Shown here: piece after piece, positions 5,262-23,411 of the stretch
Position numbering within the stretch: the stretch's first letter is position 1
How the letters are laid out: the number at the start of each line of letters is the position of its first letter
From: Lentisphaeria bacterium UBA4640
GTDB lineage: Bacteria > Verrucomicrobiota > Lentisphaeria > Victivallales > UBA1829
Assembly: GCA_002405835.1 (NCBI GenBank)
Contig: DHMO01000002.1
Coordinates: 9,531 to 73,530, forward strand
Length of the DNA stretch: 64,000 bases
Direction: 5' to 3'
Made by a program: the position numbers and the translations under genes
The notes under the pieces: generated by a model
What the model was told of the DNA's origin: nothing
What the model saw: only the letters and a program-made list of their open reading frames with translations
The model's database searches: none

Positions 5262-5372
5262 TTTTCTCTCAACCTTTCTGTTTTGGATGATTCAATATTC
5301 TGCGCTCTGTTTACATTATACTCCATAAGTGCGAAAAAGTCAATATCTTTTTCAGGAAAAAGAAAAAGTTTA

Positions 5373-5400
5373 TTGACATATCTAAAAAGCGGTGTATAGT
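5373..5400 (+). promoter_or_regulatory. Sigma70-like promoter for the GntR-type regulator
   Basis: TTGACA (5373-5378), 16-nt spacer, TATAGT (5395-5400). AGGAG RBS at 5411-5415. Confidence 0.5.
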
Positions 5401-5421
5401 TCTCTTAAACAGGAGATGACT

Positions 5422-6426: not shown

Positions 6427-6744
6427 GCTCCCGTTTCAGTCCGGGAAAAGAGAGTCCGAAGCGGGCGAGATCCTTGCTCATACAGTCGGAATCATTGCTG
6501 CTTTTTTTTGATACAGAAGAAGTTGGCACGCGGATTGCTATGAACAAAAATATCCGGCTGGATTGATCCGGTTCCGGGAATTCCCGGGGAAGGGGCTGTG
6601 CGCGGCTGCCGCATCCTGTTTTTGTCGTTCAGAGGATGCGGGCCCTCCTATCATCCGCGCGCAGTTTCCTTCCGGATATTGCAGTCAAATTTTGAAAGGT
6701 GCTTGTCAATATATGAGGTGGACAATGTTTGAGGAGTGGCGGCG

Positions 6745-7535: not shown

Positions 7536-7542
7536 TCTTTCC

Positions 7543-9468
7543 TCACCATTCGAACGGAGAGGCGGGGAGGGAGGCCGCATTGTACAGGTTCCCGTCCGGG
7601 TTGTCCGCCCAGCTGTAGCGGACATGCACCGGACAGCGGACGAGCGCGGAGCGGAGAAGGACGCTTGTTCCGTCAATTTCAATGCCGTCGGCAAAAACGA
7701 ACTTGCGATTCGCTCCGGCAATCAGGAATCCGCGCGGAGCTCCGCGGAAATGGAGTCCGTCCGCATACGCGAATGAGATGCGGAGCGCTCCGTTCTCTGT
7801 CCGGACTGTCTCCGGCAGGGGGCCGGAGGGGACGAGCCCCCTGCAGCCGTAGTCATGGAACAGCGCGAGACGAGCCAGACGGAAACCGACGGTTCGTTTG
7901 TCTTTCGGGTGGATGTTGTCTGCATCTCCGCAGTCGATCGCCACAGCCATTCCGGTGTTCGGGGCGTGCATGCAGGCGCGCCGCTGGTTTTCGCGCAGAA
8001 CTGGCCAGAGATTATCCGGGCTGTAGGGGGAGGGCTTCCGGTAGTTGGCGAGCTGAACCATGTAAAACGGGAAATCCCCCTGTCCCCAGCGGTAGCGCCA
8101 GTCGTCGATCAGATCCGTCATTTTGCGTTCGTATGAAGCGGCATCCTCCGGGCGGAACGCGTTTTCCTCGCCTTGATACCAGATTGCCCCGCGGATGGAG
8201 AAGGGGATCAGCGGACGGATCATGCCGTCGAAGAGGATGGCGGGTGTGTTGGGCATTCCCGGTCCCGCTGCCATGACTTCCGGAGTAGGGGGAACTTTGC
8301 CGAAGTCGGTTTCAACTTGGAATTTCCAGTTTCCCGCAAGGAAGATTGCGAGTTCCGGGCGCCCTTCCGGATAGAGACGGTATGCCCGGGCGCCGCCCCG
8401 GAACGCTCCGTCGTGCAGAAAAGAAAATGCGCGGATTGCAAGCATGTTCCGGCCTTTGCAGAGCAGGCGGGGCGGAACGGAATACGAGCGGGGAACGTTC
8501 CAGAAACACTCGTCGAATCCGCTTCCGGTTGCGCCGGCGGTGACGCCGTTGATATAGGTAACGTCGTGCTTGTCGACGGGGCCGAGTTCGAGAATCAGAT
8601 TTTCCTTTTCCCATCCGTCGGGGAGATTTATTCCGCGGCGGATCCATACAGCTCCGTTTCCGGCGAGTTTCCGTTCAGTCCAGGAGCCGGGAACTTCAAA
8701 ATCACACCATGCGGAGTCGTCGAAATCCGGCGAAGCCCAGCCGGATTTTTCTCCGCGGTTTCCGGGATCTCCGCGGAGAACGGTTCCGTAGCGGGATGAG
8801 GGAGTGCATCCGGGGCCGGCGGCGAGCCAGCCGGAGGCTTCCGGAAGGGTCTGCTCGTATTCGGTGAATGCGGGCGCAAGTTCCGGATTGCGCATCAGGC
8901 GCTCCCGGCTCGTCCAGGCTTCAATCCGCGTTCCGCCCCAGGAGCTGTGGATGATTCCGACGGGGACGCGGAGCTGTTCGTGCAGAAACAGGGCGAACCA
9001 GAGGGCGACGGCGGAGAGCGGCGGGACATTTTCCGCAGTCGTGGGGAGCCACTCGCCTTTGAACTCCGTCTGGCGCGCGGTTGTTGCGCATTTCGGAACG
9101 GTGATCATCCGGATTTCATCCGGCGTCCGGCAGGTTTTCAGAAAGTCCGCGAGCTGCGGCGACCAGTCCGCGTGGAATTCCATGTTGGACTGTCCGGAAG
9201 CAAGCCAGACTTCCCCGAAGAGAATATTTTTTACCTCCGCCCGCTCTCCGTTGGAGATGTTTTCAACGGTCAGAGTATGCGGCCCGCCAGTCTTGTCAAC
9301 CGGTGCGAAGCGGATCAGAAAATCTCCGGAGGAAGAGCTGACGCCGAACGCGGAACATCCCGCAATCGAGGCTTTGACGACGGTGTCCGGAGCGGTTTTA
9401 CCCCATACGGGAAGCGGCTGGCGGCGCTGAAAAACTGCTCCGTCCGAAAACAGGGATCCAAGCTTCAC
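7543..9468 (-). CDS. SASA-family carbohydrate esterase (sialate O-acetylesterase-like) with an inserted GH2-N-type jelly-roll domain
   Basis: GEVWLASGQSNMEF and GAIWYQGEENA are the SASA/DUF303 signatures. The middle segment FDDSAWCDFEVPGSW...AVWIRRGINLPDGW...VTYINGV...NMLAIRAFS resembles a galactose-binding-like domain. No signal peptide is evident. Confidence 0.8.
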   Translation of the reverse strand: MKLGSLFSDGAVFQRRQPLPVWGKTAPDTVVKASIAGCSAFGVSSSSGDFLIRFAPVDKTGGPHTLTVENISNGERAEVKNILFGEVWLASGQSNMEFHADWSPQLADFLKTCRTPDEIRMITVPKCATTARQTEFKGEWLPTTAENVPPLSAVALWFALFLHEQLRVPVGIIHSSWGGTRIEAWTSRERLMRNPELAPAFTEYEQTLPEASGWLAAGPGCTPSSRYGTVLRGDPGNRGEKSGWASPDFDDSAWCDFEVPGSWTERKLAGNGAVWIRRGINLPDGWEKENLILELGPVDKHDVTYINGVTAGATGSGFDECFWNVPRSYSVPPRLLCKGRNMLAIRAFSFLHDGAFRGGARAYRLYPEGRPELAIFLAGNWKFQVETDFGKVPPTPEVMAAGPGMPNTPAILFDGMIRPLIPFSIRGAIWYQGEENAFRPEDAASYERKMTDLIDDWRYRWGQGDFPFYMVQLANYRKPSPYSPDNLWPVLRENQRRACMHAPNTGMAVAIDCGDADNIHPKDKRTVGFRLARLALFHDYGCRGLVPSGPLPETVRTENGALRISFAYADGLHFRGAPRGFLIAGANRKFVFADGIEIDGTSVLLRSALVRCPVHVRYSWADNPDGNLYNAASLPASPFEW

Positions 9469-9578
9469 AGGAAAGACCTTTCTTGTTTTTTAATTTATTT
9501 TAATATAACATCCGGTGCGGGAAGTTGCAACCGGAAAAATATTTTGAGTTCAGATAACGCGGATTTCTTCTTTTCATC

Positions 9579-9607
9579 TTGAAAAGGAAAGCGCAGCCCG
9601 GTATATT
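9579..9607 (+). promoter_or_regulatory. Sigma70-like promoter upstream of the GH78-like gene
   Basis: TTGAAA, 17-nt spacer, TATATT, about 50 nt upstream of the ATG at 9656. Confidence 0.45.
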
Positions 9608-9655
9608 AAAAATACGCGCACGCAAGCAACCTCTAATTTTTGCAAAGGCAGAAAA

Positions 9656-12031
9656 ATGAATCCGAAAGCCTTCTGGATCTGGCCCGGAAACGCGTTCTAC
9701 ATGCAGAACAGTTATGCGGGATTCCGTTATGATTTCAACATGGAAAAGATGCCGTCGTCGGCACCTCTGGAAATTACGGCGGATCAAAGCTACCGTCTGC
9801 ATGTCAACGGACGCTATGTCTGTCGCGGTCCTGTGCGCGGATATCAGCATCACTGGCCGTTTGATGTGGTCGATATTCTGCCGTACCTCAAAAACGGACA
9901 CAACTGGATTTCCGTTGAAGCGTACAATCCGGGAATCGGAACGTTCGCGTACAATCACGCCGACCGCGCGGGCTTTCTCTGTTCCGCGGAATGGGACAAC
10001 GGCGTTCAGATTCTTTCGCGCATCAAGGAGTGGACGGTTTTCCGCAACACCGCGTATGCACACGATACGGCGCGTCTCAGCATTCAGCTCGGATGGCAGG
10101 AGGAAGTCGATCTGCGTTATGACGACCGCAGCTGGATAACCGCGGAAACGGATTTCCGGATTCCGCCTCAGCCCGACTGGTGTCATCCGGCGGAAGCCGT
10201 TCAGGGCAGTCTTCCGTGGTCAGCGCTTGAACGCCGCAATATCCCGATGCTTGATGAGCACGAGCTGGCACCTGCGGCAGTTGTTTCGTTTGCTTGCGGA
10301 ACCTGTGCGGAACCTGCGTCGGCTCTGCCGTATGCCGAACACAATATTGCGTGGGATTTCGCAAAATATGAACTGGATTCGCTCATTTACGGAAAAATCC
10401 CGTCCGCGCATAGAGAGGGAAACTTTCTCTGCTGTGAAGTCCCCGCCTCCGGAGCAGGACGTCTGAGCTGTGTTACATTCGACCTCGGTGCGGAGGAGTG
10501 GCTTACGGGAACGCCCGTTCTGGAATACGACGGCGCGGAGCCGGGGCTTGTCTTCGATCTGCTCTATTCGCACTGGCTGCCCGAAGGACGCGTCCGCTTT
10601 GAACCGAAGCCTGGATGCGGCTGTCTGATCTCGCTTGCGGCCCGCGTGATCGCCGGAGCGGAGCGGGAGCATTGCGAGCTCTATCAGATCATGGGCGTCC
10701 GCCACGTGAGCATTGTTGTACGGGAAAATATGCGTCCGCTGAAACTGAAACTTTCCTGGCGCTCCTCCGTCTATCCGATGAAGATTTCCGGTTCGTTCCA
10801 TTGTTCTGACGAGGTGCTGAACGGGATTTACCGCGCTTCGGTTCACACGCAGAGAGTCTGCTCAATGGATGCGTTTGTGGATACTCCCTGGCGCGAACAG
10901 TCCCAGTGGTGGGGCGATGCCCGGGTTCAGGCGAAGAACACCCACTTCCTGACGGCGGATTCCTCGCTTCTGCGGCAGGGCATCCATTCCATTTCCGGAC
11001 AGCATGCGCCCGACAACCTCACTTTCGCCGACGCCCCGACGACGGACTGCGGATGCGTTCTGCCGGACTTCTGCCTGACCTGGCTTGCAACTCTGCACGA
11101 CCTCTGGTTCCAGACTGGCGAAACGGATCATCTGCGCGAGCAGAAATCCCGCGCCGAAGACATCCTTGCCTATTTTGAACAAATGCGTGATTCACGCGGG
11201 CTTGTGAAAGCCGATCCGCGCTACTGGCTGTTTGAAGACTGGTGCGACCTGCCGCGCGACAACACTCCCGCCTTCCTCAACCTCTGGCATCTCTACGCCG
11301 TCACTCTCTACTGCAAGTTCTTGAAGAATGCCGGATACGCGGCGGATGCGCATTCGCTTGAACAGAAAATCGCGGCGGAACGCGTTCTGCTCAAAGAAGC
11401 GTTCTTCGATCCCTCGCAGAATCTGTTTGTCCCGGAACTCGACCGGAACGGAAAACAGAACGGAACTCCGTCGGTGCACGACCAAGTGCTCGCGCTTCTG
11501 TGCGGACTCGCTCCGGAAGCGGAGAAAACAATGCTCGAAACGCGCATTCTGCCGTATCTGAAAGGAACGCTTTCCGGCTGTGCGCAGCCGTCGTCGTTTT
11601 GGGCGACCTACCTGTTCGATGTCGCGGGAGAGTTCGGACTGCGCGCGGAAGTGCTCTCGTTCATCCGTGAAAAATGGGCGCCGATGGTTCCTGCGGGAAC
11701 GGTCTGGGAGACGTTCTGCACGGGCTGGTCGTATTCCCATGCGTGGAGTGCTCATGCGATCTCGCACCTTCCGGAGCTGGTGTTCGGACTGAAGCAGACG
11801 GCGCCCGCCTGGCGTGAAATCGAACTGAATCCGCTGCTGAACGTTCTGGAAAGCGCGGAGATGAAAGTCCCGACTCCGCAGGGAATGATTCAGGGAAGTT
11901 TGAAATCGGACGGCGGCGCCGTAACGGTCCGCTTTGCGGTTCCCGCCGGAATCTGCGCCGCAATTTATCTGCCGTCTGAGACGGTTCAGACGGACGGTTC
12001 CGCGGTTTGCGTGGAACGGGAACTGAAGTAA
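9656..12031 (+). CDS. GH78-like (alpha/alpha)6-barrel glycoside hydrolase, putative alpha-L-rhamnosidase (791 aa)
   Basis: The N-terminus FWIWPGN...YRLHVNGRYVCRGP is a rhamnosidase-type N-domain. VDTPWREQSQWWGDARVQ resembles the DxPxRE..W.GD motif of GH78 catalytic domains. Confidence 0.65.
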   Translation: MNPKAFWIWPGNAFYMQNSYAGFRYDFNMEKMPSSAPLEITADQSYRLHVNGRYVCRGPVRGYQHHWPFDVVDILPYLKNGHNWISVEAYNPGIGTFAYNHADRAGFLCSAEWDNGVQILSRIKEWTVFRNTAYAHDTARLSIQLGWQEEVDLRYDDRSWITAETDFRIPPQPDWCHPAEAVQGSLPWSALERRNIPMLDEHELAPAAVVSFACGTCAEPASALPYAEHNIAWDFAKYELDSLIYGKIPSAHREGNFLCCEVPASGAGRLSCVTFDLGAEEWLTGTPVLEYDGAEPGLVFDLLYSHWLPEGRVRFEPKPGCGCLISLAARVIAGAEREHCELYQIMGVRHVSIVVRENMRPLKLKLSWRSSVYPMKISGSFHCSDEVLNGIYRASVHTQRVCSMDAFVDTPWREQSQWWGDARVQAKNTHFLTADSSLLRQGIHSISGQHAPDNLTFADAPTTDCGCVLPDFCLTWLATLHDLWFQTGETDHLREQKSRAEDILAYFEQMRDSRGLVKADPRYWLFEDWCDLPRDNTPAFLNLWHLYAVTLYCKFLKNAGYAADAHSLEQKIAAERVLLKEAFFDPSQNLFVPELDRNGKQNGTPSVHDQVLALLCGLAPEAEKTMLETRILPYLKGTLSGCAQPSSFWATYLFDVAGEFGLRAEVLSFIREKWAPMVPAGTVWETFCTGWSYSHAWSAHAISHLPELVFGLKQTAPAWREIELNPLLNVLESAEMKVPTPQGMIQGSLKSDGGAVTVRFAVPAGICAAIYLPSETVQTDGSAVCVERELK

Positions 12032-12048
12032 AATTCTCTGTTTTTTTC

Positions 12049-12081
12049 GCCGGTGCGGGTAATTCAGCGCCGGCTTTTTTT
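12049..12081 (+). terminator. Rho-independent terminator after the GH78-like gene
   Basis: GC-rich stem GCCGGTGC...GCGCCGGC followed by a T7 run. Confidence 0.55.
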
Positions 12082-12139
12082 AGACGTTTTAAAGTGACGC
12101 ATGTCACATTTTTTTAGAACATTTTCTCTCGTTTGCCTA

Positions 12140-12168
12140 TTGACATTTTCGCCGAAATGTGGTATAAT
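12140..12168 (+). promoter_or_regulatory. Consensus sigma70 promoter with extended -10
   Basis: TTGACA, 17-nt spacer ending in TGG, then TATAAT. Both hexamers are perfect consensus. Confidence 0.65.
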
Positions 12169-12189
12169 TTCTTTCGTGAAAGGCGGAAT

Positions 12190-13221
12190 ATGACAATGGA
12201 ACCGAAAAAGTTTATAACGAAAATCAACATGCGCCAACTTGCAAGGGATCTGGAGATCAGCGTCATGACGCTTTACCGCGTCCTGAACAACGAACCGACT
12301 GTCCGTCCTGCAACCCGTAAGCGTGTGATTGACGCGCTGAACAAACGGGGATATTACGCCAACCAGGAGGCAGCAAGGAAGATCGTCGTGGATTTCAGCA
12401 ACAACCGCTATCTGCTCTTTTTCGGGACGATTCTTCTTCAGCAGCTTTCGAACGATGGTTTTACGATTGTCGCGACCAATCACCGGGAGAAGCGGATTGC
12501 ATTTCTGGATGCCATAACGGATGCGGAAACCGTGGTTTACTGCTCGGAACCGGATGAAAGCGTTGTCGCGGAAGTGAAAAAAGTAAATCCGAACATCTTC
12601 TCCATTTCCATGTTCGGAACGGCGTTGAATACGGATATCATCCTGCGCTGCAACGATATGCTCGGCTGTTCGCTTGCGGCGCAGCACCTGTACCGTCTGG
12701 GGCACCGCAGGCATATCGCGGTCCACAAGGATTTCCGTCATAAAGATGCGGACCGGCGTATTTTCCTGTTCTGCGCGGAGATGAAGCGTCTGGCTCCGGA
12801 GTGCCGGATTGATATTCTCGAACAGCGCAGCAGCGATTTGAGCGGATTTTTCCGGAACTATTTTTTTGAACAGAACAAACATCCGACGGCGATTCTGTTC
12901 GTCATGTGTTATTCCGCTTCGATTTTCCGTCTGGCGGTTCTTCCGAATCTTCCCGATGAGATGAAAAACATCGGCATCATGAGTTACGACAGCATCGTGG
13001 ACATGAATCCGGCGGGAGAAACCGACAAACTGGACCGGGTGGATTTTTCAATGGAAGAGCTGTTGCGCTGGATGGAGTATCTGCTCAATAACCGCCCGAT
13101 GCTCGGCTGCCGCAACTCCGTGGAGATTTCAATCAACATGGGGCTTTTCGTGGAAAACAGTGTCCCGGACATTACCGGGGAAATCAACAATCATAAAATA
13201 AAGGAAGGTCAGACAAAATGA
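12190..13221 (+). CDS. LacI-family transcriptional regulator
   Basis: The [45 protein letters not shown] is followed by a PBP1-like domain. The track start at 12133 overlaps the promoter. The ATG at 12190 (or 12196) follows GAAAGG. The stop overlaps the next start (ATGA). Confidence 0.85.
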
Positions 13222-14066
13222 AAAAAGAATCAATGCACCGCGGTACGCCGTTCCGGAGACGGAGAAGCAATAAATTTACCCTTATAGAGCTCCTTGTGGT
13301 AATTGCCATCATCGCAATCCTCGCCGGAATGCTTTTGCCTGCGCTGAATGCGGCGCGGGAAAAGGCGCATGCGATTGCCTGCACGGCAAACATGAAGCAG
13401 GTTGGAACGGAGCTTTCCATGTATACGGTGGACAACAACGACTATCTGCCGAATCTCTGGCAGAGCGGTGAAATATCGTTTACGGACAGCATTTTCGATT
13501 ATGGGAAAACTTCCTACGCGAGAAAATCGGTCAGCCCGACATCGGGAACTTATGCGTACATGTCGGTCTACACGCCTGCGCGCTACTGGTACTCTTCAAA
13601 ATCAACATATGTCTGCCCGACGGCAATGTCGCGTCTCTTCCCGCAGTTCGAGGGAACGCCGTCCACGCGTTTCTCCAGCAACTATCTTCCGACGATGTGC
13701 CAGGACAATTCCAGCTGTTCCGCCTACAACTGTGCCTGGTGGCGGAGCATGGGACAGACGGCGGAGAATCCGAACGGACGCCGGATCGGAGACATCAAGG
13801 GACGCATCATCGTCGGAGAGGCAATGTTCACAAAGTATTCCTCCGGAACGGATTCCAATACTCCGCATGACATCAATGCCGTGCATCACTGGGTTCCGCA
13901 GCCGATTTCGGGCGACCGCAAGCCGTACATCTCCGCCGCAGGCAACGTCCACGGCGGCGGAATGAGCGGAAACTGGCTCTACAAGGACGGGCATGTTTCC
14001 AGCCACAAGTTCAACCAGCTTCCGATCCGCGCGCCGGGTTCTTCGATGTATTTCATGGGACTGTAA
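13218..14066 (+). CDS. Prepilin-type N-terminal cleavage/methylation domain protein (pseudopilin-like, DUF1559 type; H-X11-DG variant)
   Basis: [32 protein letters not shown] near the N-terminus. The C-terminus reads [15 protein letters not shown]. Confidence 0.9.
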
Positions 14067-14081
14067 GGGGAGGGGAAGGGA

Positions 14082-15011
14082 ATGAACTGGAAACATCTGC
14101 TGTTGACGGCTCTTGCGGCATTCTCGCTTTCCGGATCTGCCGCGGATCTCAAGGTCCTGATGGTCGGTAACAGTTTTTCTCTGAGCGTACTGACCTATCT
14201 TCCGAAAATCGCAGACGCTTCGGGGAAGAAACTGAAGCTCGGCGAGGCGATGATCGGCAGCTGCACCATCTGGCGGCATTACAGCGAATACGGCAAGACG
14301 GAAAAAGATCCCTCTCACCGTCCGTACTGGACAAATCTGAAACTGCCGGGCCGCCCGGACGGCAAAGTCAGTCTGCAGGATCTGCTTACGGCGGACCGGT
14401 GGGATATTGTGACCATTCAGCAGGCGAGCCACGAGAGCTGGCGCGGCGAAACGTTTGAAGGCGCGCCGAAGCTGATTGCACTCATCCGGAAACATCAGCC
14501 GCAGGCGGAAATTGTGATTCAGCAGACCTGGTCATACCGTTCCGACGATCCGCGCGTCATACCTCCGGATTCAGAGTGGGGCTTTGATCAGGATGCGATG
14601 TATGAAAAGCTGACGGCGAACTATCTGGCGCTTGCAAAATCCATTCATGCACGTGTCATTCCGACGGGGCTTGCGGTTCAGATTGCGCGGGAAAAATCAC
14701 CTGTCAAATTCAGAAACTATGATCCTGCACTCCTGGGAACTCTGCACTTCCCCGATCTTCCGCCGCAGGCCGGAGATGTGGTCGGCAAGCTCTACTGGTG
14801 CAAGGATCAGAAGACCGGAGAGATGCGGATCATTCGCGACGCCATGCATCTGAATGACCGAGGCGAATACCTGCAGGCGTGTGTCTGGTATTTGTCCCTG
14901 TTCGGCGGAACGGCGGATGATATCCGGTTCATTCCGAATAGCATCGGCAATTCCGACGCCCGTTTTCTTGCCCGGTGTGCAGAAGAGGCCGTCAAAACCT
15001 TTCCGAAATGA
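14082..15011 (+). CDS. Secreted SGNH-like hydrolase (DUF4886-type)
   Basis: Signal peptide MNWKHLLLTALAAFSLSGSAA. LKVLMVGNSFS is an SGNH block I-like motif. WDIVTIQQASHESW is also present. Confidence 0.7.
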   Translation: MNWKHLLLTALAAFSLSGSAADLKVLMVGNSFSLSVLTYLPKIADASGKKLKLGEAMIGSCTIWRHYSEYGKTEKDPSHRPYWTNLKLPGRPDGKVSLQDLLTADRWDIVTIQQASHESWRGETFEGAPKLIALIRKHQPQAEIVIQQTWSYRSDDPRVIPPDSEWGFDQDAMYEKLTANYLALAKSIHARVIPTGLAVQIAREKSPVKFRNYDPALLGTLHFPDLPPQAGDVVGKLYWCKDQKTGEMRIIRDAMHLNDRGEYLQACVWYLSLFGGTADDIRFIPNSIGNSDARFLARCAEEAVKTFPK

Positions 15012-15051
15012 TTCCTCAAATAAAGATAATATAAACGAAAGGAAAACTACC

Positions 15052-15744
15052 ATGAAAAAGATGTTGAAACTCGCAACGGCGCTTCTCGTTCCCGGAAGTC
15101 TGATGGCAGCCGATCCCGCCGCGCTCATTCCGTTCGACGGAACTCCGGCTGTACTCAAGGCGGACGGCGGAAAAATTGCGGAGGGCGGCATGATCGGACA
15201 GCTGGAATATGTCGACGGCATGAAAGGAAAAGCTCTTGTCGTGGACGGAAAACCTGCGGCGTTTCTGGTCCGCGATCTTTCCGAAAATGATTTCCGCGAA
15301 GGAACAGTCTCTTTCTTCTTCCGTCCGAACTGGGAACGGAAGGACGGCAAGGCGCATTATCTGTTCCAGACGGGCAAGTGGCGTTCTGAATTCTTTCTGG
15401 TTTTTGTGAAGGATGAGAGAGGCCAGCTGGAGCTGAGCGTCTGCACTCCGAAGCAGCGTCAGGTCTTTGTGAAAAACGCGGATCTCCAGCCGGGGAAGTG
15501 GGTTCATCTTGCGTTCTCCTGGAATACCGCCAAAGGAGAAGGCGTGATTTACATCAACGGCAAACCCGCCGCCCGCACCGTGCGTGAGGACTGGAAAGAG
15601 GGCAGTTACAGCTTCAAGGCTCCGTGGAATATCCAGCTGGGACGGAACGCCAACGAGCCGGCGGGCGGAGCCTACGACAATCTGAAGATTTACAACAGAC
15701 AGCTCTCCGATGCGGAAATTCTTGCGGATTCCGCCGAGAAGTAA
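15052..15744 (+). CDS. Secreted LamG / concanavalin-A-like lectin domain protein (230 aa)
   Basis: ATG at 15052 preceded by AAAGGAAAA. Signal peptide MKKMLKLATALLVPGSLMAA. It is a paralogue of the N-terminus of the next gene. The C-terminal YDNLKIYNRQLSDAEI is typical of Laminin_G_3 domains. Confidence 0.8.
   Translation: MKKMLKLATALLVPGSLMAADPAALIPFDGTPAVLKADGGKIAEGGMIGQLEYVDGMKGKALVVDGKPAAFLVRDLSENDFREGTVSFFFRPNWERKDGKAHYLFQTGKWRSEFFLVFVKDERGQLELSVCTPKQRQVFVKNADLQPGKWVHLAFSWNTAKGEGVIYINGKPAARTVREDWKEGSYSFKAPWNIQLGRNANEPAGGAYDNLKIYNRQLSDAEILADSAEK
15295..15580 (+). repeat. Copy 1 of a ~286-bp LamG-coding direct repeat
   Basis: About 80-85% nt identity to 16073-16358 by eye. The first 56 nt differ at a single position. 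Confidence 0.8.
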
Positions 15745-15817
15745 GCATTCCCCTGTTTCTCTGGAGGTCCCTCGTGGATTTGTCCCCGGGAACCTTCTTT
15801 ATTGAAAGGTCTCTCTT

Positions 15818-18800
15818 ATGCGATTGATGACAAAACTTGCGGCGGTGCTCTTTGTACCCTGCAGTCTGATGGCGGCGTTCCCGAAAGTGATCGTGCCGTT
15901 TGACGAAAACCCGACCATATTCAACGGCGGCGGCAATCCCTGCGGCCTGGCTGTTGTTTCCGGCAAGAGCAGCTATGTCGACGGCGTGGACGGCAAGGCG
16001 CTTGCGGTTCAGCGTATCGCCTACGACCAGGTCACGGCGGTGAATCTGAACAAACTGCCAGACTTGAACGCCCGCGAAGGAACGGTCTCTTTCTTCTTCC
16101 GTCCGAACTGGGAACGGAAGGACGGCAAATCCTATTATCTGTTCCAGGCCGGGAAGTGGCGCTCTGATTTCTTTCTGGTTTTCGTGAAAGATGCGAGCGG
16201 TCAGCTGGAACTGAGCGTCTGCACTCCGAAACAGCGTCAGCTGTTTGTGAAAAATGCGGATTTGAAAGCCGGAAAATGGGTTCACATTACTTTCTCATGG
16301 AATCTTGCGAAAGGCGAGCAGGCGATCTATCTGGACGGCAAACCCGCCGCCCGCAAATCCCAGGCGGAGTGGAAGGACCCCGGATACAATTTCAGAGGAC
16401 AGTGGAATATCTGGCTCGGCAAAGGCGGTTCCGACCGCTTCAAGGCGGAAGTCGCGGAGGGCGCGTTCGACAGCCTGAAAATTTACGACGTCCAGCTCTC
16501 GGACAATGAAGTCCTTGCCGATTTCCTCGGCAGCTACGCGAAAACGATGCGCCCGGTTCCCGTGGAGCAGGTCCGCCGGAATGACGGCAAACTGGAATTC
16601 CGTTTCAGCGCTCCGGTAAAGCGTTTTTCGAACGCCCAGCCGCTTCTCTCTCTGAAAAGCGGGAAAAGCCTGATTACGGTTTCCTCGACCGGGGCTTCGG
16701 GAAAGCTCACGCTCAACGGTGGCGGAAAACTGCTGGATTCTCCTTATGTCATAAACCTGACGCGTCCGCTGAAACTCTCCATCCGCCCGGAAGGACGGAA
16801 AGCGGGAATCTGGTTTGACGACGCGTTTCAGGGATATCTGGAACTGCCCGGCGGATGGGATGGTCTGGACTCTGTCAATGCCGCGGAAGGCATCACGCTT
16901 TCCGCTCCGGAGTTTTCGGAAAAAGAAATTGCTCCACTGAAACGGAAAGCCGACGGGGCTCTTGAAAAATGTCTCTGGAACCTGAACGATGCGCAAAAGG
17001 TTGACTCGGGCGTCCGGCAGTCGATTTCCCTGAACGGATATTGGCGGATGTTTGAAGACGACAGCTATGCGTTTTCGCCTGCTCTTCCGGCGGAACAGCA
17101 CTATGTCCGCATCCCGGGCAGCCGCCGTTCCTCCTGTTTCCAGCTTTACCGCGGGAAAAACGGAAAACTGGAAAGTCTCAATGTTCAGGAAGGCCCGCGC
17201 ACAACGGCGGACTGGTACCAGCGCACATTCAAAGTCCCTGAGGCATGGAAGGGCAAACGCATCTTCCTGAATTTTGAAAATCTGAACGGGGATTACGGAC
17301 GCGTCTATCTGAACGGGAAACTGATCGAATCGTTCCGTCAGGATTACAAATCCTTTGCCGCGGTTCCGAATGCCCGGCGGATTGATGTTACGGATCTGCT
17401 TCAGGAGGAAAATGTTCTTTCGGTTTTCCTGACACACTTCATCCGTCTTTACTGGCGCAACCTACCGGACATGCGCGACACATGGAACATCGTTCTCGGC
17501 GACGCCTGGCTGGAAGCCGGTCCCTCGCCGGTTTTCGTGAAAAGCGCGGTTGCCTTTCCCTCCGTCCGCAAAGGAACGCTGGAGATGCGCGCCACGGTCG
17601 AAAATCCACAGGGAGTGAAGGGCGATGCAGAGCTGACTTTCCGTTACCGCCGTGCGGGTTCGGAAAAAAGTTTCTCGAAAAAATTCCGCCTGGACGGTTC
17701 GGAAAAACAGCGAATTGTTTTTACGGAACCGTGGAAAAAACCGGTTCTCTGGAGCGAGGAGAGTCCGGAGCTTTACGCGCAGAGTGTTGCGCTTTCCGTG
17801 AACGGCAAAACGGCGGACATGCTTCCGGAGCGTGACTTCGGGTTCCGCGAACTGTGGGTTGAAAACGGCGAGTTCCGTCTCAACGGTTTCAAGAAGCGTT
17901 TCCGCATGAGCGCAAATCCGCAGTTTGATTCGCTGAACATGTATCTTTCGCACCCCCGTGCGGTTGCGCAGTATGTCGCCCAGCTGAAACGCATGAATTT
18001 CGATTCGGTCCGTTTCAATCCGAGCATCATTCAGCGCAACGCGGGATTCTACAATACTCCGGCCTATCTGCGTGAGTGCGGACGTCAGGGAATCAGCAAT
18101 TTCTTCCCCATGCCGTTTTATGAAGGCGGCGACGAGGCGCAGTACCGTGAATGGGTGGAAAATTATCTGGAGTTCTTCGGGACTTTCCCGAGCATCGTTC
18201 TGTGGTATACCGACTTCAACACCTGCAGCTATGCGGCGTGCCAGGATCCCTATTATCTGAACGATACGTCATATGTTCCGAAGGAGCGGGTTCTGAAGGC
18301 GCGGAAGTTCGTTGAAGTTGCGGACCGCACGATGCGTTCGCTTGACCCGAGCCGCGAATGTGTTCCGCACGCGGCAGGAAACTTCGGCAAGGTGTTCGGT
18401 TCCATGAATTACCAGTCGTTCGGAACTCCGCTTCAGGAGCAGGAGGACTGGCCGAAGATCTGGTCGGAGAAACACACGCAGCCGCTGGTTTCCTTCGAGT
18501 CCTCCTTCCCTTATCCGCTCCAGTTTACCTACTTCGACGGCCCGATCGGGCACTACATGAATGCGGAGCATGCCGCCCGTTATTTCGGCGACTCCGTGTT
18601 CCGTGATGAGATCGCCCCCGTGCAGTTCGGCAAATGGTTCCGGTTTTCCCCGGTTACGCCGAATTCGGCGAACTATATCCGCGGCGCCGCGGAAATGTGC
18701 CGCCGAGTGATCCGCTCCTGGCGTGCATATGATATTTCGTCTCTTGGAGATTTCACTTCGCTGGATGAGGCGTTCCGGCTTTCGGCGGCGGGCAGTCATC

Positions 18801-21130
18801 ACCCGATGTATTGGGGAGACGATGACAATGTCAAGCAGGCGGGGCTCCGTCCCGACAATCATGTCGCACTGGGCGTGGTTCAGGACTTCATGCAGCTGGA
18901 ACCGCTCGGACGCCTGATTCAGAAGGAATATTCTCCGCTCCGGGTTTTCCTTGCCGGCGATCCGGATGATTTCACGAACAAGGATCACGCGTTTTTCTCG
19001 AATGAAGCGTTCCGGAAAAGCATCGTCGTTGTGAACGACCGGATGAGCAGACAGAAGCTCCGGTTCCGCTGGACTTTCACCGTCGGCGGGAAAACCGTTG
19101 ACAGCGGCGAGCTGAGCGAAGACGCCGCACCCGGCGCAATTCTCAAGTTCCCGGTCAATCTGACCGCTCCGGAAGTTGCGGCGCGGACGGAAGGCAAACT
19201 TTCGCTCGACGTTTTTCTCAATGACAAAGGATTCGATACGGATGAATTCGCCGTTCAGATTTTCCCCCGGACGGAGCGTCCGGATTTCCGTTTCACCGAG
19301 CCGGCCGGACTTTACGATCCCGCCGGAAAGACGGCGGAACTTCTGAAGCGGGCGGGGTATCCGTTCCGCAAGATTTCCTCGGCAGAGGAAGCCCGTTCGC
19401 ACCGGGTCCTGATTATCGGACAGGATGCTCTGGGAGATCACGTTCCCCGTTTTCTGAAGGAGATGGAGAAGAGCGGCGATTTCCGCATCGGAAAGAAGAT
19501 TCTTTTCTTCGAGCAGCAGCCCTGCAACCTTGCGAACTTCGTATTCGAATCTCCGAACAGCCGAGAAGCGTTCATCCGGCGCAGCGACAGCCCGTACATA
19601 CAGGGCTTGACGGATGCGGATTTCCGCGACTGGCGCGGCTCTTCCGACACGCGTCCCGCGAAACACGTCAGCAACCCCGACACGACGTTCCATTATCCGC
19701 GCGACAAATGGAAAATCGGAAACGGCGGCATGGTTGCCGGCAACGTCATCCGCAAGCCTTCTTACGGACAATTCCGGACGATCGTCGACTGCGGATTCAA
19801 TCTGATGTTCTCTGCACTGATGGATTACAAGAACGGACGCGGTTATGCGCTGTTCTGCCAGCTTGATGTGACCTCCCGTTACGGCAAGGATCCTGTTGCG
19901 ACCCGGATAGTCGACAACATTCTGACGGAATTCGCCAATCCGGCTCTTCCGATTTCGAATCAGACGGCAGTCTATTACGGCGATGCGGAAAATGAAGCAG
20001 TTTTGAAACGTCTCGGCGTCGGTTATGTCAAAGGCAACGCATATGACCCGAACGGATTCCTCACAAAGGGTATTGTGATTCTCGGGCGGAATGCGATTCC
20101 AAAAGAGATGCGCGAACGGTTCCGCAAGAACTTTGAAGCGTATCTTTCCGGCGGTCACTACGCAAAGGGAATCGTCGTCTGTCTCCCCGGGGCACCGCTG
20201 GATCTTCTTCCCGTGCCCATGTCGACGGAGAAAAAGCTGATGTTCCGTGCGGAGCTGCCGGCAAATGATCCGCTCTTCGCGGGCATGACCGAGGCTGATT
20301 TCTATTTCCGCACCGCACGTGAACTCAATGCTGTGAAAGCGCCGGACTGGACGGTCGCCGCACGTCCCGCGGTTCTTGCCCGCACGGGTTTTCATCAGGG
20401 CGGAGCGGTTGTCTACGTCGGCTTCACGCCCGATATGTTTGAGGATGCGTTCTGGAACAAGGAGAAAGCAACCCGGATCTGGAACACGCTGTTTGTCAAT
20501 CTGAATTTGCCGCTCAAGCAGGAGCTGAGTCTTTTCGGCAATACACGGATGCGTCACAACACGAAGACTCCGGAGAGCGCATCGCTTGCACTGACCGAAG
20601 GTTTTCTGAAACTCGATCCTCGCAACAGCGGCAAGGTTTCGGATACGGAGGGATTCAAGCCGTACAAGCCCGGGATTCCGTGGGAGAAACAGGGATTCAC
20701 TCAAGTGAATCCGCATTACAGGTATCCGGCAAATGCTCCGGCGAACATGAAGATCCCGTACGACGGTTACGCATGGATCCGGATTCCTGTCCGGATTCCG
20801 GCGGACTGGAAATCGTATTCGATCCGTCTTTCCGGCGGACCGGTTGACGATGCGGATGAAACCTGGTTCAATGGCGTGAAGATCGGCGAAACGACGCTTG
20901 CGAAGCATCCCGACTCCTATTCCCGGATCCGGAATTATCCGGTTCCTTCGAGTGCGGTCCGGTTCGGAGAAGAAAACGTTCTGATGATCCGCGTGTTTGA
21001 CCGCTGGGGTTTTGGCGGCGTCACCGGTCCTCTTCGTCTGCTGGCTGAGGAGCCGCAGTCCGGTTCGACGGCTTCTCCCTATGTAGAGAATTTGAATCTC
21101 TACGATGTGGATGCATTCCACAACTGGTGA
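15818..21130 (+). CDS. Giant secreted protein (1770 aa): LamG domain, GH2-like module (sugar-binding jelly roll, Ig-like domain, TIM barrel), about 600 aa of unassigned domains, and a second C-terminal GH2-N-type jelly roll
   Basis: Signal peptide MRLMTKLAAVLFVPCSLMAA. LamG block REGTVSFFFRPNWERKDGK. WYQRTFKVPEAWKGKRIFLNFENLNGDYGRVYLNGKLIESF is GH2-N like. FGFRELWVENGEFRLNGFKKRF is the GH2 TIM-entry motif. The C-terminus GYAWIRIPVRIPADW...ETWFNGVKIGE...VLMIRVFDRWGFGGVTGP forms the second jelly roll. Confidence 0.8.
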   Translation: MRLMTKLAAVLFVPCSLMAAFPKVIVPFDENPTIFNGGGNPCGLAVVSGKSSYVDGVDGKALAVQRIAYDQVTAVNLNKLPDLNAREGTVSFFFRPNWERKDGKSYYLFQAGKWRSDFFLVFVKDASGQLELSVCTPKQRQLFVKNADLKAGKWVHITFSWNLAKGEQAIYLDGKPAARKSQAEWKDPGYNFRGQWNIWLGKGGSDRFKAEVAEGAFDSLKIYDVQLSDNEVLADFLGSYAKTMRPVPVEQVRRNDGKLEFRFSAPVKRFSNAQPLLSLKSGKSLITVSSTGASGKLTLNGGGKLLDSPYVINLTRPLKLSIRPEGRKAGIWFDDAFQGYLELPGGWDGLDSVNAAEGITLSAPEFSEKEIAPLKRKADGALEKCLWNLNDAQKVDSGVRQSISLNGYWRMFEDDSYAFSPALPAEQHYVRIPGSRRSSCFQLYRGKNGKLESLNVQEGPRTTADWYQRTFKVPEAWKGKRIFLNFENLNGDYGRVYLNGKLIESFRQDYKSFAAVPNARRIDVTDLLQEENVLSVFLTHFIRLYWRNLPDMRDTWNIVLGDAWLEAGPSPVFVKSAVAFPSVRKGTLEMRATVENPQGVKGDAELTFRYRRAGSEKSFSKKFRLDGSEKQRIVFTEPWKKPVLWSEESPELYAQSVALSVNGKTADMLPERDFGFRELWVENGEFRLNGFKKRFRMSANPQFDSLNMYLSHPRAVAQYVAQLKRMNFDSVRFNPSIIQRNAGFYNTPAYLRECGRQGISNFFPMPFYEGGDEAQYREWVENYLEFFGTFPSIVLWYTDFNTCSYAACQDPYYLNDTSYVPKERVLKARKFVEVADRTMRSLDPSRECVPHAAGNFGKVFGSMNYQSFGTPLQEQEDWPKIWSEKHTQPLVSFESSFPYPLQFTYFDGPIGHYMNAEHAARYFGDSVFRDEIAPVQFGKWFRFSPVTPNSANYIRGAAEMCRRVIRSWRAYDISSLGDFTSLDEAFRLSAAGSHHPMYWGDDDNVKQAGLRPDNHVALGVVQDFMQLEPLGRLIQKEYSPLRVFLAGDPDDFTNKDHAFFSNEAFRKSIVVVNDRMSRQKLRFRWTFTVGGKTVDSGELSEDAAPGAILKFPVNLTAPEVAARTEGKLSLDVFLNDKGFDTDEFAVQIFPRTERPDFRFTEPAGLYDPAGKTAELLKRAGYPFRKISSAEEARSHRVLIIGQDALGDHVPRFLKEMEKSGDFRIGKKILFFEQQPCNLANFVFESPNSREAFIRRSDSPYIQGLTDADFRDWRGSSDTRPAKHVSNPDTTFHYPRDKWKIGNGGMVAGNVIRKPSYGQFRTIVDCGFNLMFSALMDYKNGRGYALFCQLDVTSRYGKDPVATRIVDNILTEFANPALPISNQTAVYYGDAENEAVLKRLGVGYVKGNAYDPNGFLTKGIVILGRNAIPKEMRERFRKNFEAYLSGGHYAKGIVVCLPGAPLDLLPVPMSTEKKLMFRAELPANDPLFAGMTEADFYFRTARELNAVKAPDWTVAARPAVLARTGFHQGGAVVYVGFTPDMFEDAFWNKEKATRIWNTLFVNLNLPLKQELSLFGNTRMRHNTKTPESASLALTEGFLKLDPRNSGKVSDTEGFKPYKPGIPWEKQGFTQVNPHYRYPANAPANMKIPYDGYAWIRIPVRIPADWKSYSIRLSGGPVDDADETWFNGVKIGETTLAKHPDSYSRIRNYPVPSSAVRFGEENVLMIRVFDRWGFGGVTGPLRLLAEEPQSGSTASPYVENLNLYDVDAFHNW
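16073..16358 (+). repeat. Copy 2 of the LamG-coding direct repeat
   Basis: See 15295-15580. Confidence 0.8.
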
Positions 21131-21164
21131 TCATCTATCCCGGATTTGCCTTGAACGGGAAAGT

Positions 21165-21203
21165 CCCGAAGGACTCCGGATCGGTTTCTCCGGAGTCCTT
21201 CGG
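21165..21203. terminator. Bidirectional hairpin terminator between convergent genes
   Basis: Perfect 15-bp inverted repeat CCGAAGGACTCCGGA / TCCGGAGTCCTTCGG with an 8-nt loop. It lies between the stops at 21130 (+) and 21219 (-). Confidence 0.6.
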
Positions 21204-21218: not shown

Positions 21219-23411
21219 TTATTTTATCTGGAAATGCTGTGTTCCGCTGAACGTGTGCGAGGTGCCGTCCGGAAGAAACAGGGTTCCGGGAATGCCCGGA
21301 GGAATTGAGGCGGTCAGCTCTATGCCGGATGAGGTCCGGTTCCAGAAAACGGAAATCCGGCCGTAGACGGAATCGTAATGCGCGTTCATCGAATGAAGTG
21401 CATCAATGAATTTCGGTTTCAGGACAACCTCGCGGAAGCCCGGACGCGTAAACGAAGGCTCGATTCCGCCGGGATACTGCATCATCCATGCCGCAAGGTC
21501 GCCGTACATGACATGACTGTGCGAACAGCGTCCGGCAAAATCTTCCAGAAGCGCAGTCTCGCCGTCTCGAATCCATTTGCACCAGCCGGGGAACTTTTCC
21601 TGAGTGAAAATCCGGAATGCCGTGTTTTCGTACCCGTAATCCGCAAGCACTCGCGGGACAAATTTCGCTCCGGCGATTCCGAAGTCCGCAATGCATTCGT
21701 CTTCCCGCATTTTGCGGTCGAGAAGCGCGGCGGAAAGACGCGCTTCCGCATCATCGCAGAGTCCGAATGCGGCGGGAAGGGCAAGTGCGGTTTTCTCATC
21801 TTTTGCCCATGAACCGCCGCCGTTGGAAAAGTGTTTGCGGAACGACTCCGCAACTTCTGCGGCGCGGTCGAGCGCCCTTGCGGCGTCTTCGCGGAAGCCG
21901 AACAGCGATGCCGTCTCCGCAAAGATTTTCAGATTCCGGAAGTACCAGGCGGTTGTGACGAATTTGGGGGCAACCGCGCGGGTGCGGTCGTAGTGACACC
22001 AGTCGCCGAGCCCGAAACGGACGATGCCGTCTTTTGCAAGCGATTTTGTAAACTGGAGATTGAGCTTGAAAGCGTCGTAGTTTTCGCGGAGGAGCGAGCT
22101 GTCGCCGCGGTAGATGTAGACGTTGCGCGGAACTCCGAGCAGAAAGTTGTCGAAGAGCGGACCGCTGCCCCAGTTGTATCCCCAGCCGGAGGTCGGCGCC
22201 ATGCCCGGAAGCTGTCCGTTCGGACGCTGGCAGTCGCGGAGCGTTCCCAGGAATTCCCGGTAGAGTTCGGATGCGTCAAACTGGAAGAGAACGGAATCGG
22301 AGGCAAGCTGATGGTCGTTGATCCAGCCGTTTTTCTCGCGGTGCGGACAGTCGGTCGGAATGCCGACAAAATTGTTGAGGATGGAGCGGCGTGTGCAGCG
22401 TCCGAGTTCGTTCATGTCCGGATGTGAACAGGAGAATCCGCCGGTTTCCGCAAAGTCGCTTCCGATGACCTGCGCGGTCAGGGAGAGAATTTCCGCATTG
22501 CCGGAGATTTCGACTGCGGCGTAGCGGAAGCCGTGGTAGGTGAATCGCGAGTGCCAGTTTTCCGCGCCGCCGCCCTTGAGAATATAGCGTTCGGTCTGGA
22601 ATTCGCCGCTTTTGATGAACCGCGCAATGTCATTGAGATGCAGCGACCCGTCGGGGTTGAGCACGTCGCCGTACTGGATTCGGATTTCGCTCCCGCGGGT
22701 GCCGCGGACGGTGAGTTCCGCGCGTCCGGCAATGTTGACTCCGGCGTCCCAGAGTCCGGGCTTGATCTGTTTCATCGGGAAGAGCTCGCGGACGCGGCAG
22801 GGCGGAGCGGTCTGTTCAAAGAGGAATCCGCCGGGACCGGCTGTGATGACGGCGCGGCTCCATGCGGAATCGTCGAATCCGTTTTCCGCCCATCCGGGAA
22901 TTTCAAGACGGGCGTCATAATATTCGCCGTTGCGCAGACCGTCAAAGGTGATCGGGCCGCTTGCCGTGACCTTCCACGAGTCGTCGCTTGCGAGGATGAT
23001 TTGTCCGTCTGCGACAATTTCGAGGAGAAGTTTCGGATAGTCGCGCCAGGTTGCCTTGTCGAAGTGCCAGGTTTCCGCAGTGTGGCAGTTGTAGAGTCCG
23101 TTTCCGAGGACGGCGCCGATGGTGTTGAGCCCGGGCTTGAGGTATGCGGAGATGTCGTATCGGAGATACCCGGCATGACGGTCGTAGTTGGTCGGTGCGG
23201 GAGCAAGCTCGGCGTTTCCGACGCGGCGTCCGTTGAGCCAGATTTCATGATAGCCGAGTCCGCAGACGAATGCTTCGCACGATTTTTCCCCGTCGATCCG
23301 GAACTCTTTTCGGAACCAGGGGGCGGGAAGAACTTTTGCCTGCCAGTCGACCATCTCCGCTCCGGCGGAGATCCAGTATGCGTTCCACTCTCTGGTATTT
23401 GAAAAAGCCAT
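21219..23411 (-). CDS. GH78 alpha-L-rhamnosidase (730 aa)
   Basis: N-terminus WNAYWISAG...PAPWFRKEF...GYHEIWLNGRRVG. Catalytic-domain motif PTDCPHREKNGWINDHQ. GGAGAG RBS. Confidence 0.9.
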   Translation of the reverse strand: MAFSNTREWNAYWISAGAEMVDWQAKVLPAPWFRKEFRIDGEKSCEAFVCGLGYHEIWLNGRRVGNAELAPAPTNYDRHAGYLRYDISAYLKPGLNTIGAVLGNGLYNCHTAETWHFDKATWRDYPKLLLEIVADGQIILASDDSWKVTASGPITFDGLRNGEYYDARLEIPGWAENGFDDSAWSRAVITAGPGGFLFEQTAPPCRVRELFPMKQIKPGLWDAGVNIAGRAELTVRGTRGSEIRIQYGDVLNPDGSLHLNDIARFIKSGEFQTERYILKGGGAENWHSRFTYHGFRYAAVEISGNAEILSLTAQVIGSDFAETGGFSCSHPDMNELGRCTRRSILNNFVGIPTDCPHREKNGWINDHQLASDSVLFQFDASELYREFLGTLRDCQRPNGQLPGMAPTSGWGYNWGSGPLFDNFLLGVPRNVYIYRGDSSLLRENYDAFKLNLQFTKSLAKDGIVRFGLGDWCHYDRTRAVAPKFVTTAWYFRNLKIFAETASLFGFREDAARALDRAAEVAESFRKHFSNGGGSWAKDEKTALALPAAFGLCDDAEARLSAALLDRKMREDECIADFGIAGAKFVPRVLADYGYENTAFRIFTQEKFPGWCKWIRDGETALLEDFAGRCSHSHVMYGDLAAWMMQYPGGIEPSFTRPGFREVVLKPKFIDALHSMNAHYDSVYGRISVFWNRTSSGIELTASIPPGIPGTLFLPDGTSHTFSGTQHFQIK

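Follow-up and report, generated by a model that had tools for sequence, protein, structure and literature searches.

The window analysed here, a stretch of 64,000 nucleotides from contig DHMO01000002.1 of Lentisphaeria bacterium UBA4640, contains between 12.0 and 21.2 kb a five-gene, presumably repressor-controlled operon of an uncultured human-gut Lentisphaeria bacterium, which encodes a LacI-family regulator, a pilin-like envelope protein (pilin B) and three carbohydrate-acting proteins that are exported. Far from being an oddity, the locus exemplifies a lineage-wide layout. Specifically, the pilin-like proteins of gut Lentisphaeria, which belong to the family DUF1559, typically adjoin a sugar-type regulator and are encoded directly 5' of a large exported protein. 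This module of regulator, pilin and exported enzyme is new, as is the promoter family that goes with it, and our search of the literature on Victivallales and Lentisphaeria found no description of the architecture.

We hypothesise that the pilin-like protein is the operon's envelope adaptor, which would move or hold the exported enzymes by way of a shared type II secretion or type IV filament machine, and we give this reading a probability of about 0.5.

Operon layout and conservation

An earlier, sequence-only reading of this DNA had proposed a LacI gene coupled to a pseudopilin gene and followed by three genes for secreted proteins. Its layout stands throughout, except for the start of the LamG gene, which we correct to 15052; the alternative open reading frame (ORF) start at 14854 would overlap the DUF4886 gene. 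As proposed, the TGA of the LacI gene overlaps the ATG of the pilin-like gene within the ATGA at 13218-13221, and the Shine-Dalgarno sequence of the pilin-like gene, AAGGAAGG, lies 9 nt 5' of that ATG. The intergenic gaps that follow (15, 40 and 73 nt), together with the Sec-type signal peptides predicted in all three downstream products (the DUF4886, LamG and giant proteins), agree with a run of three secreted proteins separated by 15-73 nt.

Both boundaries of the unit are marked by RNA structure. The perfect 15-bp hairpin that had been said to close the unit is present at 21166-21203 (-38.7 kcal/mol, z = -4.5), has no U-tract, separates convergent genes and is likely a two-way transcript end; it is identical in the orthologous locus L008, and the orthologous locus L001 has another hairpin with T6 at the same place. 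At the 5' boundary, the terminator at 12049-12081 shields the operon from upstream read-through. Its hairpin (12049-12074, followed by U7; -24.3 kcal/mol, z = -3.7) has a stem that is kept by compensatory changes in L001 and L008.

Internal promoters had been raised as a risk that could uncouple the pilin-like gene from the downstream enzymes, and a consensus scan found no promoter-like site of at least 10/12 on the plus strand within 12190-21130. Internal terminator-like matches in the unit are at shuffle expectation and not above it, the 73-nt gap before the giant gene folds no better than its shuffles (z = -0.07), and an Rfam scan gave no match in the operon region, only a tRNA elsewhere in the window.

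The operon is conserved. Orthologs at 87-94% protein identity are found in human-gut metagenome assemblies and in the metagenome-assembled genomes UMGS1153 and UMGS1182, and farther relatives carry the labels Lentisphaeria or Victivallaceae. The DNA of L001 is 90% identical over 9542-21158, with the same five genes in the same order; this order is kept in L001, L002 and L008, and L007 has the beginning of it. The ratio of non-synonymous to synonymous substitution rates (dN/dS) between the window and L001 is 0.10 for the LacI gene, 0.235 for the pilin, 0.11 for DUF4886, 0.125 for LamG and 0.10 for the giant, and these values of 0.10-0.24 in all five genes, the pilin included, indicate that the proteins are under constraint by purifying selection.

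The same organisation recurs beyond the orthologs. We tallied the distinct, non-orthologous pilin modules in gut Lentisphaeria loci (n = 18), a sample that is partly biased in that three modules were reached via LacI and two via the giant. In 9 of the 18, the pilin gene is immediately preceded, on its own strand, by the gene for a LacI-type or GntR-helix-turn-helix (HTH)/LacI-domain regulator, at spacings of -4, -4, 0, 12, 32, 41, 87, 105 and ≤132 nt. Among the remaining modules, two have the regulator elsewhere in the operon, five have a divergent regulator (AraC type in three, GntR type in two) and two are not assignable. Of 13 modules, 12 have a Sec signal peptide in the product of the gene right after the pilin. 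Approached from the regulator, three of four LacI paralogs (L104, 60% identity; L102, 57%; L106, 32%) have a pilin gene next to them downstream and, after it, one for a protein of about 1100 residues, and the fourth (L105, 54%) overlaps by -4 nt with a gene for an exported 163-aa protein, at which the contig ends.

Coupling to a regulator was also considered as a trait of the whole protein family and was rejected on an environmental sample of 80 loci, where regulators make up only 2 of the 32 testable upstream ORFs, both of them on gut- or rumen-looking contigs. The coupling is therefore lineage-specific. The sequence-only reading had called it unusual, which is correct in general but not within the gut Lentisphaeria, where the nine modules share it. 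In the environmental loci of non-Lentisphaeria relatives (L019-L098, with Gly or Ala at position -1 of the pilin) the pairing is a different one: what comes after the DUF1559 gene is often a small ORF of 95-160 aa and not a giant.

The pilin-like protein

Pilin B is a member of the very large DUF1559/H-X9-DG family (PF07596, TIGR04294) of the Planctomycetota-Verrucomicrobiota-Chlamydiota (PVC) bacteria. It has a basic 19-residue leader ending in Lys, then the segment FTLIELLVV and a head of the pilin type; the motif H-X11-DGH is C-terminal. Its best 8000 database relatives are 220-300 aa long, most of them with PF07596 (SBP_bac_10/DUF1559), and such relatives carry the JGI name 'prepilin-type processing-associated H-X9-DG protein'. 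The PF07596 profile gave no match to pilin B itself at E ≤ 0.01 and matched pilin A, a second family member in the window, at 1.9e-9. In an alignment of 38 members (A1), F20, T21, L22 and E24 are invariant, the Cys pair C55 and C133 is conserved, and H245, N252, L254, D257, G258 and H259 are conserved in at least 90% of the sequences. A two-residue insertion gives the X11 spacing of the pilin B sub-branch, where pilin A and most relatives have X9. Mean column identity of the family alignment is 27%, with a highly variable head and a constant helix and C-terminal motif. A profile search of 1.84 billion representatives returned 22,919 clusters at E ≤ 1e-30; with the threshold relaxed to E ≤ 1e-10 there are 238,382.

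In many genomes of Planctomycetota, Lentisphaerota and Verrucomicrobiota no family has more paralogs than this one. The literature describes it as abundant and membrane-associated. It is the largest paralog group in Planctopirus limnophila, with 68 copies of which two are essential (PMC10632474), and Tuwongella has 91 two-domain copies, which turn up in membrane fractions and whose neighbouring genes often encode exported proteins (PMC8567305); proteins with N_methyl plus SBP_bac_10 fractionate with membranes in a planctomycete (PMC8567305). The function of the family is not established in the literature (PMC10632474, PMC8567305).

The AlphaFold2 model of pilin B (pLDDT 80.5) predicts a helix (residues 22-72) on a beta sheet, in a lollipop-like shape, and a Foldseek search of this model against PDB gave no significant match for the head (best E 1.4). 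Solved pilins match pilin B only over residues 15-90. The Pfam name SBP_bac_10 would suggest a solute-binding protein, which we reject, as Foldseek shows no periplasmic-binding-protein fold and the model is pilin-like; judged by this model, the name is misleading for pilin B.

The sequence-only reading called pilin B a pseudopilin, and one might suppose that a standard type II secretion pseudopilin (GspG/H-like) lies by chance in an operon of carbohydrate-active enzymes (CAZymes). The N_methyl profile TIGR02532 does match (21.5 against a cut-off of 16.3), and there are weak matches to GspG, ComGC and GspH. However, only residues 20-76 align, GspG scores 38.8 bits against a cut-off of 88.85 and GspH 25.9 against 80, the protein is twice the size of GspG, its C-terminal 200 residues match no solved pilin, and position -1 is Lys where Gly would be expected. 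Moreover, the family shows paralog expansion in PVC bacteria, with two copies in the window and several, up to three, per 20-kb related locus, none of them beside gsp genes. A canonical GspG/H is thus rejected in favour of a DUF1559/H-X9-DG protein, and the reading as an ordinary pseudopilin is very improbable.

Bacterial class III signal peptides 'invariably' end in Gly, and for their cleavage this residue is described as 'absolutely critical' (PMC4471445). In the 104-118 sequences most closely related to pilin B, position -1 is occupied by K, R, N or S in about 70%, and about 6% have G or A there; FTLIELLVV (+1 to +9, with Glu5) is essentially invariant across 104 relatives. Environmental PVC relatives with the same motifs have G or A at -1 in 71 of 81 cases (88%). 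Within the gut Lentisphaeria clade, position -1 is as rich in K, R, N and S as positions -2 to -6, and the median leader charge is +4. The clade has lost Gly(-1), on which the known prepilin peptidases depend, and kept the helix motif, a feature newly seen here. Either the peptidase of this lineage dispenses with Gly, or the leader may be retained and the protein anchored in the inner membrane. We also observe that the leader has 4-7 residues beside GntR-type regulators and 15-25 residues, rich in Arg, beside LacI-type regulators, in a comparison of about ten cases (window, L001, L003, L099, L102, L104, L106 and L107) for which common descent is a possible cause.

The regulator and its promoter

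The LacI HTH domain (PF00356) matches residues 14-58 of the regulator at 32.6 bits against a cut-off of 27. Pfam gave no Peripla_BP match, and an alignment to the LacI-family structure 7ff4 spans residues 13-197; PF13377 is present in the farther LacI paralogs P0128-P0130. The regulator has only ten database clusters of relatives and is 23% identical, over 174 residues, to a canonical LacI of the same window. By these comparisons its sugar-binding domain appears barely recognisable and the regulator appears to be a divergent member of the LacI family. The canonical LacI (LacI HTH plus Peripla_BP_3; 40085-41071, minus strand) stands alone by secY and a tRNA-Val gene, without a pilin partner; not all LacI-type regulators in the genome therefore head pilin modules.

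The closeness of regulator and pilin could point to a sensor, in which the uncleaved leader would be a basic cytoplasmic tail and the protein a trans-membrane partner of the adjacent LacI or GntR regulator, which it might, for instance, tether or release in response to glycan in the periplasm. This would account for the frequent adjacency or translational coupling of the two genes (9 of 18 modules, often at -4 or 0 nt), and it is consistent with a -1 position that has lost its Gly and resembles any leader residue, with a leader length that tracks regulator type and with the poorly recognisable sugar-binding domain of the window LacI. Against it, the pilin of L107 is the last gene of its operon and distant from LacI, five modules have a divergent regulator, usually of AraC type, the 7ff4 alignment does cover residues 13-197, and the leader correlation comprises about ten cases and may reflect common descent. 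LacI-family proteins, furthermore, normally sense small molecules themselves. On balance we regard a sensor role as unlikely. The related idea, that the pilins of gut Lentisphaeria, no longer cleaved after the loss of Gly(-1), have turned into single-pass envelope sensors whose variable head detects a glycan while the retained leader signals to the regulator encoded on the same message, seems to us similarly improbable. Each regulator-pilin pair would then be a two-piece trans-membrane switch heading a swappable enzyme cassette, a pilin-based counterpart of the hybrid sensors and anti-sigma pairs of polysaccharide-utilisation loci (PULs) in Bacteroidota.

The consensus promoter reported ahead of the LacI gene is a 12/12 match at 12140-12168, the sole such site in 9-24 kb, and it is retained in L001, L008 and the paralogous operons. 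Consensus sites with at most one mismatch number two in the whole 64 kb, where 0.04 are expected, and the two (5315-5343, minus strand; 12140-12168, plus strand) each precede a pilin-led operon. The paralogous LacI-pilin promoters align with the one at 12140-12168, with near-consensus hexamers and the same TTGACWTTTTC start, and the spacer start TTTTCGC is common to this promoter, the pilin A promoter and the promoters of L102, L105 and L104.

Operator palindromes were sought around the promoter, and sequence inspection gives candidates at 12091-12110 and 12143-12160 (Table 1). The centre of the first lies about 74 nt 5' of the likely start site; its counterpart in L001 and L008, GTGACGCGCGTCAC, is perfectly palindromic over 14 bp. 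The core GTGAC-N4-GTCAC occurs twice in the 64 kb, against an expectation of 0.03; the second exact occurrence, at 50196-50209, lies within a 7TM-HD receptor gene (49400-52051, minus strand). The second candidate, the spacer repeat ACATTT-N6-AAATGT, is conserved in the orthologs. As a LacI-specific operator it is weakened by the GntR-controlled pilin A promoter, which shares the spacer start.

The promoters of the paralogs also carry a palindrome about 33 nt 5' of the -35 hexamer, with differing half-sites: GTGAC (window and L105), GTTAT (L102) and ATGAAC (L104). The residues of these LacI paralogs at the positions of LacI Tyr17/Gln18 are VM (window), AM, TM and PT respectively, given in the same order as the half-sites (window/L105, L102, L104). 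The differing half-sites and the differing residues at Tyr17/Gln18 would fit paralog-specific operators, for which these palindromes are candidates.

The exported proteins

The DUF4886 protein matches its Pfam family at 2.6e-38, and among solved structures its best match is to a hypothetical protein, PDB 4i8i (7e-15). It had been labelled an SGNH esterase; an SGNH-like esterase is possible, but the support consists of the DUF4886 assignment, with a nearest structure that is itself hypothetical.

The small LamG protein matches Laminin_G_3 at 8.7e-18, and the protein (15052-15744) is 57% identical to residues 1-235 of the giant (15818-16522), signal peptide included; its gene is a duplicate of the giant's N-terminus. 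L107, too, has a separate LamG gene ahead of the giant.

The giant comprises a LamG domain (residues 74-232), a GH2-fold core at about 430-1130 (jelly-roll, Ig, TIM barrel, Ig) and a long unassigned region; residues 1648-1745 resemble the inserted domain of sialate O-acetylesterases. A model of residues 430-1130 (pLDDT 81.7) finds the GH2 structure 8u01 with Foldseek (E 1.7e-28, about 750 aligned columns). These domain matches and the modelled fold agree with the LamG and GH2-like labels given in the sequence-only reading. As an enzyme, however, the giant has the predicted GH2 fold but apparently not the Asn-Glu acid/base motif, which in GH2 enzymes lies where barrel strand 4 ends. In a profile alignment WYTDFNT (about 795-803) aligns with WSIGNEI and WSQGNEA of GH2, which places Asn801 at the Glu site, and Phe-Asn stands in place of the GH2 Asn-Glu acid/base pair throughout the consensus of the giant family (59 clusters). 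A near-invariant Glu (fragment E465, ...PLVSFES...) resembles the GH2 nucleophile motif of strand 7, by eye only. As the acid/base Glu appears to be replaced, classical retaining hydrolysis by the giant is not assured, and this GH2-like family apparently lacking the acid/base Glu is new.

The giant family is narrow, with its 59 clusters between 1600 and 1790 aa. Its relatives stand in operons of the order LacI-GH1-LamG-giant-pilin (L107, 62% identity) and X-pilin-GH39-giant (L108, 46%), and one (L109, 42%) has no pilin. Most giant-family operons (three of four) include a pilin, whose position in the operon is free.

A sister module and the flanking genes

The claim that the operon repeats the logic of another unit, operon A, holds: a second pilin-led unit with regulator, pilin and exported proteins occupies 3945-6426 (Table 1), and a further exported protein of more than 1315 aa follows the 176-aa gene and runs off the left window edge.

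Between the window (5103-6427) and L001 (4949-6273), an identity of 95% extends over the GntR-type regulator, the intergenic promoter and the beginning of pilin A, up to codon 53. The rest of pilin A and its downstream genes (window 1-5102) are unrelated to L001, which has a CBM9-containing 1176-aa protein and a fucosidase there. The breakpoint falls in the segment coding for the pilin N-helix, where pilins A and B are about 89% identical over 72 nt. This pattern, new here, suggests that recombination at the conserved 5' end of the pilin gene exchanges the operon body behind it.

A stretch of 3.1 kb (about 6430-9540) is missing from the otherwise colinear L001. It contains a frameshifted, truncated remnant of an RtcB RNA ligase (6851-7387 plus the start of ORF 7314-8276, plus strand) and the SASA-type acetylesterase gene.

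The flanking GH78-like, GH78 and SASA enzymes have no signal peptide and are presumably cytoplasmic, made from separate transcription units, and we infer that the pilin-led operon is the exported arm of a rhamnose-related glycan pathway.

Table 1. Positions in the window of the operon, its control elements, the sister module and the flanking genes.
Feature	Position	Strand	Remarks
LacI-family gene	12190-13221	+	343 aa; first gene of unit; presumably autoregulated
Pilin-like gene (pilin B)	13218-14066	+	282 aa; DUF1559/H-X9-DG family; N_methyl motif
DUF4886 gene	14082-15011	+	309 aa; Sec-exported
LamG gene	15052-15744	+	230 aa; Sec-exported; concanavalin-like
Giant gene	15818-21130	+	1770 aa; Sec-exported; LamG plus GH2 fold (modelled)
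Terminal hairpin	21166-21203	strand-neutral	15 perfect pairs, loop of 8
Sigma-70-type promoter TTGACA-17-TATAAT	12140-12168	+	12/12 match; extended -10 TG at -15/-14
Palindrome AAAGTGAC-GCAT-GTCACATT	12091-12110	+	candidate operator, LacI- or CRP-like GTGA-N6-TCAC
Inverted repeat ACATTT-N6-AAATGT	12143-12160	+	promoter spacer; second candidate operator or promoter-family signature
Intrinsic terminator of upstream GH78-like gene	12049-12081	+	hairpin 12049-12074 plus U7
Pilin A promoter TTGACT-17-TATAAT	5315-5343	-	near-consensus; 54 nt 5' of pilin A
Pilin A	4479-5261	-	260 aa; PF07596 plus N_methyl, H-X9-DG
Exported 176-aa protein downstream of pilin A	3945-4475	-	Sec signal peptide
GntR-HTH plus LacI-type sugar-binding-domain regulator	5392-6426	+	divergent from pilin A
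SASA-type acetylesterase	7543-9468	-	without signal peptide; inside the stretch at about 6430-9540
GH78-like gene	9656-12031	+	without signal peptide
GH78 gene	21219-23411	-	without signal peptide

Discussion

We propose that the LacI protein would bind the promoter palindromes and silence the strong promoter, its own synthesis included. A breakdown product of the target glycan would release LacI, and the five proteins would then be made together. Rhamnose is a probable constituent of the target, given that the unit is flanked by cytoplasmic GH78 rhamnosidases and an acetylesterase; both inducer and substrate are guesses. The pilin-like protein would enter the inner membrane by its pilin-type helix, with the head in the periplasm, and its FTLIELLVV/Glu5 helix would dock on a shared type II secretion or type IV filament machine encoded elsewhere. 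The docked pilin could then get the big exported enzymes across the envelope or hold them there. Pilins require an invariant FTLIELLVV/Glu5 segment to assemble into filaments but not to anchor in the membrane (PMC4471445), and the invariance of this segment in the family therefore points to contact with such a machine. A precedent comes from a Verrucomicrobiota isolate in which a PulG-like pseudopilin, of a group with 67 paralogs, lies in an alginate-induced cluster and in which over-production of a pseudopilin on alginate was seen (PMC13274419).

Several observations weigh against this proposal. The ORFs scanned in the window include no secretion or pilus machinery (peptidase, ATPase or platform). 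Position -1 of pilin B is Lys, and only about 6% of its nearest relatives have G or A there; the missing Gly(-1) makes filament assembly of pilin B doubtful. The main candidate operator, near -74, is in an odd position for repressing a consensus promoter. One giant homolog (L109) has no pilin nearby. In addition, the pilins nearest to pilin B (47-50% identity, 47% for the head) are those of operons with an unrelated 1318-aa protein, for which BLASTP against the giant is not significant, and the head has no detectable similarity to the pilins of the giant operons L107 and L108. Pilin and giant as a co-evolving pair is thus not supported, and a pilin head that does not track enzyme family argues against a lock-and-key cargo adaptor.

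The same head comparisons could favour a role in glycan capture, with the pilin as a membrane-anchored or fibre-borne carbohydrate binder, similar to a component of the archaeal bindosome or SusD and with no part in export. It would keep the glycan, or oligosaccharides derived from it, at the envelope, ready for uptake or for the enzymes made with it. A pilin type that is independent of enzyme family fits recognition of a substrate better than of a cargo, the head varies on a constant helix and C-terminal motif, and the pilin dN/dS is twice that of its neighbour genes. There are precedents in Sulfolobus, whose sugar-binding proteins have class III signal peptides (PMC3047682), and in the modular or glycan-binding minor pilins of Streptococcus sanguinis (PMC8179133, PMC9934059). 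However, Foldseek finds neither a periplasmic-binding-protein nor a lectin fold in the head (best E 1.4), the operon has no transporter gene, and it already encodes a separate LamG lectin-like protein. Glycan capture by the pilin is therefore a tentative alternative, with perhaps some weight but clearly less probable than a role as envelope adaptor.

Relation to known systems

Pilin B resembles the DUF1559 (PF07596) paralogs of Planctomycetota, Lentisphaerota and Verrucomicrobiota in its N-terminal helix, size, Cys pair and H...N.L..DGH motif. In contrast to environmental DUF1559 proteins, its clade has K, R, N or S for Gly/Ala(-1) and, in one sub-branch, X11 for X9. Neighbouring sugar-type regulators and downstream exported CAZyme-like giants likewise belong to the gut clade and not to the environmental sample. 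The closest published parallel to the operon, Verruconatronum alginivorum (PMC13274419), also has a PulG-like paralog inside a substrate-induced polysaccharide-degradation cluster of a PVC bacterium. It belongs to another phylum and has other enzymes, and its authors describe no regulator coupling and only suggest the link to the type II secretion system.

With LacI-repressed sugar operons (lac, gal, rbs and cre/CcpA) the unit has in common the LacI HTH, the catabolic genes that follow and a candidate palindromic operator, which in the orthologs has a central CG. Unlike in lac-type operons, the regulator here heads the operon that it presumably represses, the promoter is a perfect consensus and the regulator is translationally coupled to an envelope protein. 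The PULs of Bacteroidota are similar in that each has its own regulator, a non-enzymatic envelope component and exported enzymes, in an arrangement that recurs, with different enzymes, many times in a genome. The envelope part here is pilin-like, however, the exported and cytoplasmic enzymes are in separate transcription units, and no SusC/SusD or TonB-dependent receptor families are among the Pfam and NCBIfam matches of the window ORFs scanned. As in the Sulfolobus bindosome (PMC3047682) and the modular pilins of Streptococcus sanguinis (PMC8179133), a pilin N-terminus would place a non-pilus module in the envelope, where it serves adhesion or the use of sugars. In contrast to the bindosome, the head of pilin B has no binding-protein fold in its model, there is no linked ATP-binding cassette (ABC) transporter and Gly(-1) is absent.

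Taken by itself, the single locus is an ordinary member of a pattern, and its protein family was already known, although not its function. The locus and its relatives together tie the DUF1559/H-X9-DG family to glycan use, and they suggest that the loci of this gut phylum, on whose polysaccharide biology there has been hardly any work, are organised along PUL-like lines.

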